A DNA stretch of 41,744 nucleotides from a virus (Duplodnaviria; Heunggongvirae; Uroviricota; Caudoviricetes): IMG/VR virus record IMGVR_UViG_3300031963_006119; one strand, written 5' to 3'. The position numbers and the translations under genes were made by a program. Below the pieces are notes generated by a model. That model saw nothing but the letters and a program-made list of their open reading frames with translations, did no database searches and had not been told where the DNA came from. Shown here piece after piece: positions 15,251 through 29,381 of the stretch (the stretch's first letter is position 1; each line of letters begins with the position of its first letter).

Positions 15251-15417
15251 AATGTGATACTTGCGGTGAAAATTTAAAAGAAAATGGTTATGGATGTGAC
15301 TGGCGACAAGGTCGTTGCCCGCATCGCCATCCCATGTTTAACGAAATCGTACTTGACAATTACAAGATGCGATATTATAATTTAGTACAAACTATTAAAG
15401 GCTGGTTTAAATTTTGA
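15247..15417 (+). CDS. Small Cys/His-rich protein (56 aa) absent from the ORF track
   Basis: MKCDTCGENLKENGYGCDWRQGRCPHRHP...GWFKF; ATGA overlap upstream and TTGA overlap downstream fill the gap exactly. Confidence 0.7.
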   Translation: MKCDTCGENLKENGYGCDWRQGRCPHRHPMFNEIVLDNYKMRYYNLVQTIKGWFKF

Positions 15418-15605
15418 GAAACTTAGAATTAGAAGATGCTGTAATAGCATTACATGACACAGCTAGAACTGTTGAAAAAAGAATTGGTCGAGGTCAATTA
15501 AGCGACGACATTAGATCCTGTGCAGATCGATTGCATCAATATTTAAGAACCGATGCATCAATTAATATACTAACACAAAATATTATTAACAAGGCAGAAG
15601 AATGA
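15414..15605 (+). CDS. Hypothetical protein (63 aa)
   Basis: TTG start coupled to the previous stop; ATGA overlap with the clamp loader. Confidence 0.6.
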   Translation: MRNLELEDAVIALHDTARTVEKRIGRGQLSDDIRSCADRLHQYLRTDASINILTQNIINKAEE

Positions 15606-22676: not shown

Positions 22677-23123
22677 ATGAAAAGTTTATTTGTATTTTTA
22701 TTAGCAACAGTATTATCTGTTCCGGCTTTTGCACAAGGCAAAATGCCTACTAAGTCAGCAACATATGATGCACAAATTATTAGAGTGAGTGATGGCGATA
22801 CTATTGTAATCGCCGCCCCCTTTCTACCAGCCCCGCTCAAACCTGAACTTGCTGTTAGAATCTACGGCGTTGACACCCCAGAAAAAGGACACAGAGCTCA
22901 ATGTCCACAAGAAGACCAGCGAGCGCAACTGGCGAGTAAATTTACAACTCAAGCCATACAATCCCACCCAAAGCACCAGGTTATTATCTATGGATGGGAT
23001 AAGTTTGGTGGCCGTATATTGGGAGACATCTTGGTAAATGGACAAAGTATTCGACAAGGATTAATTGCCAACGGTTTAGCTAGAGAGTATTACGGCGATG
23101 CTAAACAAAGTTGGTGTAACTAA
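22677..23123 (+). CDS. Exported thermonuclease (SNase family)
   Basis: Signal peptide ending PAFA; catalytic motifs 'VSDGDTI', 'RIYGVDTPE', 'DKFGGRIL', 'GLAREY'. Confidence 0.88.
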   Translation: MKSLFVFLLATVLSVPAFAQGKMPTKSATYDAQIIRVSDGDTIVIAAPFLPAPLKPELAVRIYGVDTPEKGHRAQCPQEDQRAQLASKFTTQAIQSHPKHQVIIYGWDKFGGRILGDILVNGQSIRQGLIANGLAREYYGDAKQSWCN

Positions 23124-23215
23124 CACACCTTAGGACCGGTATTAAGTTACCGAAAGTGTGCGCCGGCTGCTGGCGCGGAGAAAGCGATTCGCTACCGTAG
23201 ACTTCGAAAGTGAGC
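23124..23215 (+). ncRNA. Candidate structured intergenic RNA (multi-stem, possible pseudoknot)
   Basis: GC-rich non-coding island in an AT-rich genome. Stems: CACAC/GTGTG enclosing CGGTA/TACCG; GCGCCG/TGGCGC; GGAG/CTTC enclosing CG/CG; loop TTCGCT complementary to 3' AGTGAG. Confidence 0.55.
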
Positions 23216-23231
23216 TTTATAAAGATTAAAG

Positions 23232-23861
23232 TTGAAAAAGATAGCATTATTTTTGCATCAACCCATCTGTGCCGTGGACTCTGCTAACGGCATCATCAAA
23301 GCTCTTTCATCCCACTACAGTTTTAAATTATTTTCTAGAGACGAAGTTGAACCTACCTTCTTTGATGATGTAGACTGCGTATGTTTTCCCGGAGGCTACG
23401 GTGACAGCGATAGATATGATACTCTAATGAAATGGAACTGTGACGCTGTTAGAAACTTTGTAAAGAGTGGAGGCAAATTTCTTGGAATATGCATGGGAGC
23501 ATACTGGGCAGATCGAGACTACCTTAATGTCTTAGATGGTGTTAGAGCAGTACAGTACATCAAACAACCTAACACTGACACAAGACGCCCCCATCCTAAA
23601 GCTATGCCAGTGAATTGGTTAGGTGTTAACGAAAGGATGTATTTCTATGACGGCTGTGCATTTGTTGGTAATAATATGGATGTTGTGGCTACCTATAGCA
23701 ACGGTGATCCTATGGCTATTATACAAGGACGCATTGGTGTAATAGGATGCCATCCAGAAAGTGAACAGTGGTGGTACGACAAAAAATATCTACAGCCTCA
23801 CTGGCACGAGAATCGACATCACCAATTATTATTAAATTTTGTTAATAGACTATTAAGCTAA
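23232..23861 (+). CDS. Class I glutamine-amidotransferase-like protein (BPL_N-like)
   Basis: 'FPGG', nucleophile 'GICMGAY', 'HPE' catalytic His/Glu; TTG start uncertain. Confidence 0.75.
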   Translation: MKKIALFLHQPICAVDSANGIIKALSSHYSFKLFSRDEVEPTFFDDVDCVCFPGGYGDSDRYDTLMKWNCDAVRNFVKSGGKFLGICMGAYWADRDYLNVLDGVRAVQYIKQPNTDTRRPHPKAMPVNWLGVNERMYFYDGCAFVGNNMDVVATYSNGDPMAIIQGRIGVIGCHPESEQWWYDKKYLQPHWHENRHHQLLLNFVNRLLS

Positions 23862-24434
23862 AACAAGTTCGTAAATCTCTTTCCAATTTTTAACAATATT
23901 ATATTCACAAACGTGGTGCATGTTATGTCCATGCTCAATAAGAATACTTTTTAATCCCAACGCATGTCCAACATCTGCGTTTTGCGGCTTGTCTTCAATC
24001 CACCACATACCACTATCCTTGTACGGAGCCAATGCACTGTCTTTATCTGCGCCTGTGTCTAAGCAAATAACTGATTCAATAGCATTGCCAAAGATCTTGC
24101 GTAAATTCATTTCACGCAGTTTCTGTGCATTTTTATCTAGACTCAAACTTGTAATAACACGGAATTGATATCCGTGTTCTTCGTGCAGTCGTTTAACATA
24201 GAAAGCACTGTCACGAAGTGCAGGAAGAAAGCCAATGGCTGCAGATTCATTAAAAGTCTTAACAACTTTCTTAGCATCTTTTTCTTCTAATTCATTGTAG
24301 TGATGATGCAGATAATAGCTTTTCTTATTATCCGCTGTTAGTGTATAACCTCGTTCTTGCATCCAAACTGAGAATGCCCATTCCCAATCTAGTAGAACTC
24401 CGTCTGCGTCTGTGAGTATAAGTTTACGTTTCAT
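23853..24434 (-). CDS. HAD-superfamily 5'(3')-nucleotidase-like hydrolase
   Basis: Start at ATG 24434; motif I 'LTDADGVLLDW', motif II 'VITS', K in 'ADKDS', motif IV 'WIEDKPQN'. Confidence 0.82.
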   Translation of the reverse strand: MKRKLILTDADGVLLDWEWAFSVWMQERGYTLTADNKKSYYLHHHYNELEEKDAKKVVKTFNESAAIGFLPALRDSAFYVKRLHEEHGYQFRVITSLSLDKNAQKLREMNLRKIFGNAIESVICLDTGADKDSALAPYKDSGMWWIEDKPQNADVGHALGLKSILIEHGHNMHHVCEYNIVKNWKEIYELVLA

Positions 24435-24440
24435 AATGCT

Positions 24441-24469
24441 ATTATACAATATTCTTGCTCACCTGTCAA
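24441..24469 (-). promoter_or_regulatory. Perfect sigma70 promoter TTGACA-N17-TATAAT for the HAD gene
   Basis: Minus strand: TTGACA (24469-24464), 17 nt, TATAAT (24446-24441), then 6 nt to the ATG. Confidence 0.85.
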
Positions 24470-25860: not shown

Positions 25861-26655
25861 ATGGATTATTACTCTGTACTAGGCATTGCCAAATCTGCTA
25901 ATCAAGATGACATTAAGCGAGCATATCGAAAACTTGCAATGCAACATCACCCTGACAAAGGCGGTGACGAAGCTAAGTTTAAAGAGATTAACGAAGCCTA
26001 TTCTGTATTAGGCGATCCAGCTCAACGAGCGCAATACGACAATCCTCAACCACAGGTTAGATTTAGAGCCGGTGACTTTAATAACGATCCATTCTCTGAC
26101 ATGATGTCACAGATGTTTGGTGGTCGAACAAGACGTAACCCAGACATTACTATTGCAGCAAAAATAGATCTAGTAGATTCAATTGTTGGTAAAAAATTAA
26201 TAGCAGCCTATAGATTAAGATCAGGTAGGGAAGAAACTGTAAATATTGATATACCACCCGGTGCTAGACACGGAGACACTATTCGATTCAGCGGGCTAGG
26301 CGATGATATTATGCCGGGACAACGCGGCAATCTTTTTGTAAAAATACAAATACTAGCACATCCTGTTTGGCGTAGAGAAGATGATGACTTGTATGCTAAA
26401 CAGAATGTCAACGCTCTTGACTTAATCTTAGGATGTAGTATAATAGTAAATACTGTAGAAGGTCGTCAATTAGAATTAAAAATTCCTAAAGCATCAAGAA
26501 ACGGAATAACATTTAGTATCAGCGACTATGGCGCACCAAATGTACACACAGGCAGACGTGGAAAAATTTTCCTAACAGTCGAAGCAGAAATTCCTAAAAT
26601 AGACGACGAAGATATGCTAAACAAAATTAGAGAGATAAGAAATGCAATTAGTTAA
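25861..26655 (+). CDS. dnaJ: DnaJ-family co-chaperone (type II/CbpA-like, no Zn finger)
   Basis: J-domain '[25 protein letters not shown]...[11 protein letters not shown]'; C-terminal 'IPPG..HGD.IR..GLG....GNL.V'. Confidence 0.9.
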
Positions 26656-27151
26656 ATCACCGGATCCTTGGCTAGATAAAGCAGTATCTGCTTTTGATTT
26701 TGAAACACTGGATGCTAAACAAATAGAAAAAGAAATGATTGAGCTAATGATTGCCGAAGGCGGTATAGGCCTTAGTGCTAATCAAGTTGCACTAGATGCT
26801 CAAATATTTGTTATAAAACCGTATCTGCTAGAAAATAAAGAACCGTTCGCTGTTATTAATCCTGTTATACTTAGAGTAACAGAAGATACAGATGCTAGTC
26901 CAGAAGGATGTCTGAGTCATCCGTTGCTGTTCTTGAATGTAAAAAGACCTAGGGGGTTGGTGGCCAAGTACCTTGACACAGACGCAAAAGAGTGTACAAT
27001 AGAACTATACGATATTGATGCTCGTTGCTTCCTACATGAATATGATCATCTTCAAGGGATTGAGTTCGTTGATAGAGTATCGAAACTAAAATTAGATTTA
27101 GCACGTAAAAAACAAATTAAAATAGAAAAAAGGATTGCACAACATGGTTGA
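26642..27151 (+). CDS. def: Peptide deformylase
   Basis: Three PDF motifs: 'GIGLSANQ', 'EGCLS', 'HEYDHL'. Confidence 0.93.
26973..27000 (+). promoter_or_regulatory. Possible internal sigma70 promoter (TTGACA-N16-TACAAT) inside def, upstream of clpA
   Basis: Perfect -35, 5/6 -10, 16-nt spacer, about 140 nt before the clpA start. Confidence 0.4.
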
Positions 27152-29381
27152 ACCATCAGAAGAACTACAACTTGTCTTTGATAAAGCTGTTAAAGATGCT
27201 AAGGCACTCAAGCACGAATATGTTACCCTTGAGCATCTGCTTTTTGCAATGTTGTGCTCTGAAAACTTTTACAATCTAGTAAAAGGTGCTAGTGCTGATG
27301 TTGATTATATCAAAACTAATCTAGAATATTATCTTAAAAATAATCTAGAAGAAATTAAAACAGAAGCAGAAAAGTATAAGCCAAAGAAAACACAGTCAGT
27401 TGAACGCTGTTTGAATAGAGCATTTACACAAGTATTGTTTGCTGGACGATCTGAGATTCAACTGAGCGATGTATTGCTTAGTATACTGTCTGAAAAGAAA
27501 AGTCATGCCGCATACTATGCAGAAAAAGCAGGTATTGAAAAAGAAAAGTTTGCTGATTATATCAACAATGAATTAGAAGTTGAAACACAAGATGAAGAAG
27601 TGTCAGGTGTTGCTCAAAAGGCACTGAGACAATTTACGACTAACCTTAACGACGAAGTTAAAAAGAAACGCATTGATCCATTGATTGGTCGTGCAGACGA
27701 ACTTGAAAGTATTGCTCTTGCTTTGGGTAGACGCAGTAAGAACAACGTACTGTTAGTTGGTGAGCCCGGTGTTGGTAAGACTGCTATTGCAGAAGGTCTT
27801 GCATACAATATCGTTGAAGGTACTGTGCCAGCGTTTTTAAAAGATTACTCTGTGTACATGCTGGACATTGGTAGTATGCTTGCAGGTTCTAAGTATCGCG
27901 GTGACTTTGAAGAACGTTTTAAACTTGTACTGTCAGGATTAAAGAGCAAAGGTAAAACTATTATGTTTATCGACGAAGCTCACATGATGAACGGTGCAGG
28001 TGCAGGTGGCGGCAACAGTGCTAATGACCTTGCTAATATGTTAAAGCCTGCACTGAGCAAAGGTAACATCAAAGTTGTAGCAAGTACTACTTGGGAAGAA
28101 TATCGCAAGTACTTTGAAAAGGATCGTGCGTTGATGCGCAGATTCCAACGTGTTACTGTTGACGAGCCTACTCCAGAAGTAACCAAAGACATCTTACGTG
28201 GTATTAAGAAGTACTACGAAGATCATCACAAAGTAACTATCACAGACGAAGCGATTGAAGTTGCTGTTAAGCTCAGTGTCAAGTATCAAGCAGATAAGAA
28301 GTTACCAGATAAGGCTATTGACTTGATCGATCTTGCGTGTTCTAGATTTAATCTAAAAGATGTCAAAGAAAAAATCGTAGGCGAACAAGAAGTACAGTTT
28401 GAACTTGCTAAGGTAGTAAATCTTCCTCCAGAACAGGTTATGGAGAAAGAAACTTCTAATCTAGAAAATCTAGAAAAGAATTTAAAAGCAGAAGTATACG
28501 GCCAAGATAACGCGATTGAAAATATTGTTGATAAGATTCTTGTTGCACAAGCTGGACTAAAACCAGAAAACAAACCAATTGGTAGCTTTGTATTCATGGG
28601 TCCAACTGGTACAGGTAAAACAGAAACTGCTAAACAACTTGCTGGACAGCTTGGTGTAAAATTAGTACGCTTTGACATGAGTGAATATCAGGAAAAGCAC
28701 AGCGTTAGTAAACTGATTGGTTCACCTCCAGGCTATGTAGGCTTTGAAGAAAACGCAGGTATTCTAATTACTAAATTACAAGAACACCCTAACTGTGTGC
28801 TGTTGCTGGATGAGATTGAAAAAGCACATCCTGATGTAGCCACAATCCTATTACAGATTATGGACAACGGTCGTATAACTGGATCAAATGGTAAAGAAGC
28901 TGATGCACGTAACTGTGTATTAATCTTAACTACTAACTTGGGCGCACAGGATGCTGAAAAGAATAATATAGGATTCGGTGACAGTCAAGACAAGGAATAC
29001 GAAGACAAAGAGCTTAAGAAATTCTTTAGTCCAGAGTTCCGCAATCGATTAGATGGTATTATTACATTTGGTAAACTGACTAAAGAAGTAATGATGAAGG
29101 TTGTTGGCAAGTTCTTAGTTGAACTTAAGGCTCAAGTAGCTGATAAAAATGTTGAAATTTCAATCACAAACGAATCACTTGATGCACTAGTAGATCGTGG
29201 ATTTGATAAAAAGATGGGTGCTCGTCCTCTACAACGTGTGATTGACAAAGATATTAAACGTCCTTTGGCTCGCAAGCTGTTGTTTGGCGAGTTGAAGAAT
29301 GGTGGAAAAGTAAACATCGACTTCAGAAACAACGAGTTTGTACTCGAATGTGTCACGGAGCAAGTAGTTGAAAAAGTGTGA
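27144..29381 (+). CDS. clpA: ClpA-type AAA+ unfoldase
   Basis: Clp N-domain 'HEYVTLEHLL'; D1 'GEPGVGKT'/'FIDEAH'; D2 'GPTGTGKT'/'LLDEIEKAH'; 'PEFRNRLD'; no ClpB M-domain; 'NNIGFG' loop. ATG 27144 preferred over TTG 27135. Confidence 0.9.
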   Translation: MVEPSEELQLVFDKAVKDAKALKHEYVTLEHLLFAMLCSENFYNLVKGASADVDYIKTNLEYYLKNNLEEIKTEAEKYKPKKTQSVERCLNRAFTQVLFAGRSEIQLSDVLLSILSEKKSHAAYYAEKAGIEKEKFADYINNELEVETQDEEVSGVAQKALRQFTTNLNDEVKKKRIDPLIGRADELESIALALGRRSKNNVLLVGEPGVGKTAIAEGLAYNIVEGTVPAFLKDYSVYMLDIGSMLAGSKYRGDFEERFKLVLSGLKSKGKTIMFIDEAHMMNGAGAGGGNSANDLANMLKPALSKGNIKVVASTTWEEYRKYFEKDRALMRRFQRVTVDEPTPEVTKDILRGIKKYYEDHHKVTITDEAIEVAVKLSVKYQADKKLPDKAIDLIDLACSRFNLKDVKEKIVGEQEVQFELAKVVNLPPEQVMEKETSNLENLEKNLKAEVYGQDNAIENIVDKILVAQAGLKPENKPIGSFVFMGPTGTGKTETAKQLAGQLGVKLVRFDMSEYQEKHSVSKLIGSPPGYVGFEENAGILITKLQEHPNCVLLLDEIEKAHPDVATILLQIMDNGRITGSNGKEADARNCVLILTTNLGAQDAEKNNIGFGDSQDKEYEDKELKKFFSPEFRNRLDGIITFGKLTKEVMMKVVGKFLVELKAQVADKNVEISITNESLDALVDRGFDKKMGARPLQRVIDKDIKRPLARKLLFGELKNGGKVNIDFRNNEFVLECVTEQVVEKV

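Follow-up and report, generated by a model that had tools for sequence, protein, structure and literature searches.

The DNA analysed here, hereafter the window, is a stretch of 41,744 nucleotides from the IMG/VR virus record IMGVR_UViG_3300031963_006119 (Caudoviricetes). It is a fragment of a large phage, with genes for a clamp loader, ThyX, an endolysin, a holin and a module of DnaJ, peptide deformylase and Clp-like proteins, and the nearest cultured relatives of this phage are the PA5oct-like jumbo phages of Pseudomonas, whose clamp loader is 55% identical. On the plus strand, a staphylococcal-nuclease-like (SNase-like) gene and a GATase/BPL_N-like gene with a TTG start are separated by an intergenic gap of 108 nt (23124-23231). 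An initial annotation, made from the letters of the sequence, had described this gap as a GC-rich non-coding island holding a candidate novel structured phage RNA with a possible pseudoknot, and had listed the helices of that RNA. All of the listed helices are present where they were placed, and the gap does have a GC content of 0.51 against approximately 0.40 in its surroundings, where one coding stretch reaches 0.52. The stop codon of the upstream gene (TAA, 23121-23123) directly abuts the outermost helix, P1.

Several other features of the window are recorded here for orientation. A protein-handling run lies a few kb from the RNA and comprises DnaJ (25861-26655), peptide deformylase (26642-27151) and a ClpA/B-like ATPase (27135-29381), host-like genes with translation- and folding-related functions. 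An NT5C-like nucleotidase ORF (23853-24449, minus strand) sits between the GATase-like and fatty-acid-desaturase genes and overlaps both by a few codons, and a perfect sigma-70-like promoter is found at 24469-24441 on the minus strand. The largest ORF-free gap of the window (15251-15601, approximately 350 nt) is located just upstream of the clamp-loader gene and yields no Rfam match.

Screens for known RNAs agree with the initial annotation, which had held that the element is not a tRNA, lacks a U-tract terminator and contains no recognisable riboswitch or ribozyme core. ARAGORN detected no tRNA or tmRNA genes in the whole window, and there is no intrinsic terminator on the plus strand between 23124 and 23231. 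The claim of novelty likewise stands up to Rfam 15, which gave no family for the whole window at gathering thresholds, nothing relevant in 22900-23450 at E values up to 10, and no family for 14 loci spanning all loop types and PA5oct; the models of known self-cleaving ribozyme classes (hammerhead, twister, twister-sister, pistol, hatchet, HDV-like and hairpin) gave no match either. Folded on its own, the sequence is unremarkable when compared with shuffles (z = -0.63 on the plus strand and -1.17 on the minus strand). Since the single-sequence fold is no better than chance, the sequence alone proves nothing, and proof of structure comes from homologues. In four metatranscriptome runs from four studies, used as contigs, the upstream genes are covered and positions 23138-24424 are uncovered, an outcome that is neutral as to expression.

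Homologues and covariation

Initial homologues were collected from IMG/VR as loci retrieved via both flanking proteins. In these loci the gap sequence recurs as constant blocks interspersed with variable, complementary stems, and its placement differs from locus to locus, following the nuclease gene, preceding the GATase gene or preceding a terminator. A two-block motif, consisting of CCTTAGGA and CGGCTGCTG separated by a gap of 15-45, matches more than 120 further IMG/VR viral contigs among the matches listed. With both sources pooled, at least 133 distinct copies also bear the AGTGAGC tail, and constrained folding of all copies yields one architecture.

A MAFFT seed alignment of 39 sequences, from which the window's subtype is absent, provided the basis for a covariance model (R1). 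In this seed, 90.6% of cells are paired, against 27-50% for slid partners, and 16 of 29 pairs display compensatory changes. Run with filters off, R1 has a sole match in the window, the element of Table 1, and it finds exactly one match in 96 of 100 sources. The 96-sequence alignment (A3) shows compensatory changes in 24 of 28 pairs and 90.2% of cells paired, against 37-47% in slid controls; these figures come from an alignment fitted to the model, which favours structure, and the independent MAFFT seed agrees with them. Helices P1, P3, P4 and P5 are solid on this evidence and P2 is only partly supported. Across the alignment, G.U and U.G cells number 200 against 37 A.C and C.A cells (104 against 37 without the fixed pair of P3), an excess that identifies the plus strand as the folding strand.

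A blastn comparison of the region and of the element with 50,697 phage records found no homologue, and a scan of 185,579 prokaryote genomes with the motif gave only chance matches among those listed, none of the seven with a tail-like word being family-like; copies in bacteria may therefore exist. The plus-strand segment that R1 delimits in the window is a member of a new structured RNA family of approximately 85-110 nt, found in large uncultured freshwater phages that are related to the PA5oct group and have genomes of up to 367 kb. The family is new in that it matches nothing in Rfam 15 and has no description in the literature searched; it may sit among the 8,495 unnamed candidate RNAs predicted by a 10,000-csRNA survey of IMG/VR (PMC10690425).

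Architecture of the element

The bounds of the element were set by the covariance models, R1 and a broader one termed R2, and its parts are listed in Table 1.

Table 1. Coordinates in the window of the RNA element, its structural parts and the two flanking genes
Feature	Position	Strand	Evidence or remark
SNase-like gene, upstream, outside element	22677..23123	+	Pfam SNase, E 1.8e-9
Whole RNA element	23121..23218	+	R1 34.3 bits, E 1.7e-6; R2 66.4 bits, E 2.9e-13; begins at the upstream TAA stop
P1, 5' strand CACAC	23124..23128	+	Pairs with 23156-23160; compensatory changes in 6/6 modelled pairs, 85.5% of cells paired (96 sequences)
Invariant core CCUUAGGA(C) with flanks	23127..23138	+	Mostly P1/P2 internal loop; invariant columns
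P2 hairpin	23137..23152	+	23137-41/23148-52, loop 23142-47; two pairs near-invariant, third variable
Conserved GUUAC	23146..23150	+	Inside P2; antisense of 23S 1910-1914
P1, 3' strand GUGUG	23156..23160	+	Partner of 23124-23128; P1 covariation
P3 hairpin	23161..23175	+	23161-66/23170-75, CUG apex; 100% of cells paired
P4 enclosing P5	23177..23205	+	P4 23177-80/23202-05; P5 23184-86/23196-98
P5 loop type A (AUUCGCUAC) with closing C	23187..23196	+	Loop proper 23187-95
Single-stranded 3' tail, invariant AAGUGAGC	23207..23215	+	Unvarying across family alignments
GATase/BPL_N-like gene, TTG start, downstream, outside element	23232..23861	+	Pfam; neighbourhood statistics

The helices differ in how they vary. 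In P3 the outer three pairs covary and the inner three are fixed, leaving an invariant CGG-CUG-CUG apex that includes an invariant G.U pair. Compensatory changes affect 10 of 10 modelled pairs in P4 and all three in P5, with up to six pair types per position. The P4/P5 domain is modular, accommodating at least four unrelated types of P5 loop; the window carries the AUUCGCUAC type, and about 60% of members have other loops. The at least 133 copies and the covariation in 24 of 28 pairs thus bear out the initial annotation's proposal of a novel structured RNA, for which homologues and covariation had been the suggested check.

The pseudoknot that the same annotation had suggested, between loop 23188-93 and tail 23209-14, fares less evenly. 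The pairing exists in the letters of the window and can form in 87% of the cells with letters. Covariation is absent, since the tail is constant throughout, and the loop is missing in 21 of the 96 sequences. As for the tail acting as a seed, sites complementary to it were sought elsewhere in the window and none was found.

In a few members the invariant core, elsewhere unpaired, meets a complementary strand of its own. At loci L250 (6136-6243), L175 (5086-5195) and L211, and in PA5oct (L407, 1493-1589), the core CCUUAGG is paired to an inserted CCUAAGG or CUUAAGG; such a built-in, rRNA-like partner strand could make these copies a masked or self-inhibited form.

Genomic context

Four phage genomes of 300-367 kb, of which three are complete, have a single copy of the element each, and a 160-kb genome has none. 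Element and upstream ORF share their orientation in 166 of 171 loci. The upstream stop codon falls 3-13 nt before the core, in or beside P1, in 79 of 135 distinct copies, over a total range of 3 to approximately 250 nt, and the next start codon usually lies 4-70 nt downstream of the element; in 32 of 170 loci the next gene downstream is on the opposite strand. A terminator within 80 nt downstream, located on the plus strand where present, accompanies 6 of 129 copies, and 22 copies have a U tract after the tail. At the six loci concerned (L099, L105, L243, L244, L264 and L230) a strong canonical terminator stands 10-30 nt past the tail, so the element closes a transcription unit in some phages. 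Several other copies have promoter-like TTGACA boxes downstream. No tRNA genes occur near the element in 54 of 55 loci, the one exception being more than 7 kb away.

Neighbour statistics were restricted to the 114 loci found by the RNA motif alone, among the matches listed. The immediate neighbours in these loci belong to 62 protein families upstream and 55 downstream, and a DsbA-like protein of 86 residues is the neighbour met most often within 5 kb (55 loci), followed by a family-B DNA polymerase. The element thus behaves as an independent single-copy unit in a variable region.

These results do not sustain the initial annotation's further suggestion that the RNA is a cis-regulator of the TTG gene downstream, which has no Shine-Dalgarno (SD) sequence. 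The GATase-like gene follows the element in only 12-14 of the 114 loci, and some copies run into a terminator instead. Moreover, 18 of the 40 start sites checked in the window have no strong SD, so the SD-less TTG gene is not special. Given the variable neighbours and the unexceptional start, a cis-regulator dedicated to the GATase-like gene is excluded, and a riboswitch serving that gene becomes an extremely improbable account of the family. In the window, as in many loci retrieved via the GATase-like protein, the element does lie 16-30 nt upstream of its gene, but this sample was selected by gene; in genome G003 the element is approximately 100 kb from the GATase-like gene, and no expression platform accompanies it.

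Complementarity to ribosomal RNA

The most unusual property of the element, absent from the initial annotation, is its antisense relation to rRNA. Segments of the window were compared, as reverse complements, with the E. coli rrnH operon. The invariant core with its flanks (23127-23138) is the exact antisense of 12 nt of 23S rRNA (1920-1931), with a duplex energy of -19.5 kcal/mol that none of 60 shuffles reached. The P3 apex region (23164-23174) is the exact antisense of 11 nt of 16S rRNA (517-527, the 530 loop), a duplex energy matched by 4 of 60 shuffles. In the type-A loop, 23188-23196 is the exact antisense of 9 nt (23S 1929-1937) that abut and overlap the target of the first segment; this 9-nt match recurs in at least 36 members, and its duplex energy, equalled by 21 of 60 shuffles, is not significant alone. 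The type-A loop is notable because its target adjoins that of the first segment and not because of the strength of the match. Finally, 23209-23216 in the tail is the exact antisense of 8 nt (23S 1098-1105), again not significant alone (3 of 60 shuffles).

Among 5000 dinucleotide shuffles, 85 contained a match of at least 12 nt and two contained both a 12-mer and an 11-mer, and the sense, reversed and complemented orientations of the window produced matches of only 8-9 nt. The signal extends to the family: in 131 of 133 members, antisense local alignment scores best on 23S 1900-1933, the median score being 14.5 where the sense, reversed and shuffled controls give 9.5-10.5, and 132 of 133 members have at least 10 nt of complementarity to 16S 517-528. 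In the commonest subtype (locus L116), 22 of 24 positions of 23S 1910-1933 are matched, and the window aligns in antisense with 23S 1910-1931 with a 2-nt insert.

By its letters, then, the segment enclosed by P1 is demonstrably an antisense image of 23S rRNA from approximately 1910 to 1933, which spans the loop of helix 69 and its 3' strand into helix 70; P2 in effect mirrors the helix 69 hairpin. The P3 apex is likewise antisense to the 16S 530 loop. Complementarity exceeds chance for 23S 1910-1933 and is marginal, taken alone, for 16S 517-528 and for the P5 loop.

Variation within P1 bears on the same question. In the inner three P1 pairs of the commonest subtype (alignment A2, columns 8-10/35-37; L116, 3400-3402) the 5' CUA is invariant and its 3' partner changes from A to G or is absent, which indicates a constraint beyond pairing. 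With this invariant CUA, the antisense match reaches 23S 1933. When cofolded with isolated rRNA pieces, the RNA gave favourable ddG values of -13 to -21 kcal/mol, a reversed target giving -5, in a calculation that ignores ribosome structure.

A broader interpretation of the element as a patchwork of antisense pieces, with loop types B, C and D directed against 16S 337-345, 16S 1380-1388 and 23S 1968-1976, was considered and rejected: matches of equal length turn up just as often in the sense, reversed and complemented controls, and for the P5 loops that are not of type A no antisense signal rises above the controls. Searches of the literature for phage RNAs with complementarity to 23S rRNA or helix 69 found none.

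Comparison with known systems

The closest counterpart in a cultured phage is an unannotated intergenic element of PA5oct (MK797984, ~115474-115575), which starts right after a stop codon, as the window's does, and shares the CCUUAGGACCG core and the AUUCGCUAC hairpin loop in identical order. It lacks the CGGCUGCUG hairpin and the AAGUGAGC tail, a complementary CUUAAGG pairs with its core, and the element is followed by a terminator. R2 aligns with it end to end, yet the score amounts to 16.2 bits (E 0.064 in 61 kb); neither R1 nor the strict three-part motif matches in PA5oct, where the element was reached only via the 9-mer core. It is, at best, a distant relative, and it is absent from the four ncRNAs published for this phage (PMC7318152).

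The family invites comparison with several groups of known RNAs, likened here by description. Similar in outline are the species 1 and 2 RNAs of phage T4 (rnaC and rnaD), which are stable, single-copy RNAs of approximately 100-140 nt and obscure function, derived from longer transcripts of a large virulent phage. The window's element is also single-copy, but rnaC and rnaD sit in a tRNA gene cluster, whereas tRNA genes are almost always absent near the element, and we know of no rRNA complementarity in the T4 RNAs.

Loop-mediated antisense RNAs such as CopA/CopT and OxyS-fhlA, and the bipartite recognition of IBS1/IBS2 by EBS1/EBS2 in group II introns, share with the element the putative use of short pairings through exposed loops of a folded RNA. 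As with EBS2 and EBS1, the two loops of the window's element match adjoining stretches of one target strand in equal 5'-3' order. The presumed target, however, is rRNA rather than an mRNA or exon, and neither an intron core nor a nearby reverse transcriptase is seen. Guide snoRNAs and sRNAs and the calicivirus TURBS contain conserved stretches of 6-20 nt complementary to universally conserved rRNA, as the element does. In contrast to the guides, it shows neither C/D nor H/ACA boxes, nor were genes for a partner enzyme seen; we are aware of no rRNA guide RNAs in bacteria or phages. TURBS differ in acting in cis and on small-subunit rRNA, whereas the element is single-copy with variable neighbours.

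Discussion

We tentatively favour, with a confidence somewhat short of even, a reading in which the phage RNA would act in trans, through base pairs formed with host rRNA that is nascent or exposed. The RNA would be transcribed together with the upstream gene and possibly trimmed, after which its antisense segments may pair with unfolded nascent pre-rRNA or with rRNA exposed in free subunits, and this pairing could disrupt ribosome assembly or the joining of subunits, or divert either process. With its two anti-23S segments, an RNA of the window's subtype would hold one continuous rRNA strand from two separate loops. The exact 12-, 11- and 9-mers and the near-uniform placement of members on 23S 1900-1933 count in favour of rRNA as the target, and the diversity of neighbouring protein families, together with the single copy, counts in favour of action independent of neighbours.

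Several observations weigh against rRNA pairing. The P3 segment is paired within a GC-rich hairpin and hence unexposed; the second anti-23S loop is found in one subtype only; the targets would be buried in mature ribosomes, where helix 69 and the 530 loop are folded and bound by proteins; and blocking ribosomes would harm the phage too. The rarity of a terminator of its own and the frequent position of the upstream stop in or beside P1 mean, moreover, that the RNA may be a mere part of an mRNA. The complementarity could also reflect where the sequence came from rather than what it does at present. A more specific proposal is that of a dedicated sRNA of large phages that would recognise host rRNA by base-pairing with the 16S 530 loop and with the 23S strand of helix 69/70, which come together at the decoding centre. 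Host ribosomes or their assembly would then be shut down, re-programmed or marked, perhaps with the RNA as a guide for an enzyme. We consider this version doubtful.

Among the alternatives, a structured RNA that functions through its three-dimensional shape, whether as a protein-binding scaffold, an RNP component or a self-cleaving or processing ribozyme, is possible, if on the unlikely side. The rRNA likeness would then be irrelevant or the relic of a captured, inverted piece of rDNA, and the invariant loops would serve tertiary contacts or a partner. Such a function fits the clustering of invariant nucleotides in junctions, hairpin apex and tail, as in ribozymes and protein-binding RNAs, and it fits a P3 that does not vary although paired and retains a fixed G.U pair, the modular P4/P5 domain with its several loop types, the widely available loop-tail pairing and a position between genes of one transcript that would be sensible for a processing site. 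What speaks against it is that an antisense match of 22 of 24 positions to highly conserved rRNA, held family-wide, is hard to account for without selection on sequence; in addition, no model of a known ribozyme or RNA family matches and no protein family lies consistently alongside the element. Less probable again, and in our view quite unlikely, is a cis-acting part of a polycistronic mRNA, be it a 3' stabiliser, an RNase processing site or a TURBS-like element that holds ribosomes for re-initiation. The prevailing co-orientation with the upstream ORF, the short distances from the stop codon and to the next start, and the scarcity of own terminators would all suit such a role. Against this stand a single copy per genome in genomes of up to 367 kb, highly variable flanking genes and a stop-to-element distance ranging up to approximately 250 nt; tight gene spacing is, besides, the rule throughout these genomes, and the main complementarity is to large-subunit rRNA and not to that of the subunit that scans mRNA. 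In the loci where a terminator directly follows the element or the next gene is on the opposite strand, there is nothing to re-initiate.

A site acting at the level of DNA is highly improbable, whether as a mimic of a 23S rDNA stretch favoured by homing endonucleases or as a recombination site. The mirrored stretch (23S 1911-1937) is the recognition site of I-CeuI and lies at a cluster of rDNA intron insertion sites, but its two halves are permuted and separated in the element. Covarying helices with many G.U pairs on one strand only would be needless for duplex DNA, and no endonuclease gene is a consistent neighbour. Pairing of the phage RNA with host rRNA thus stays the reading that we prefer, at the tentative level given above.

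The family is abundant and strongly covarying, and orphan structured RNAs of such quality are rare. Experiments are within reach through the probable distant relative in PA5oct, a cultured phage. The antisense targets, helix 69/70 and the 530 loop, rank with the ribosome's most conserved elements and with those most central to its function, which offers a concrete clue to what the RNA does. Should the contact with rRNA prove false, the element would still be a new RNA fold whose invariant loops call for a partner. RNA-based takeover of the ribosome is, to our knowledge, undescribed for any bacterial virus; if the contact is true, the family would provide a natural, host-independent rRNA-targeting RNA and would mark a new departure in the study of how phages deal with host translation.
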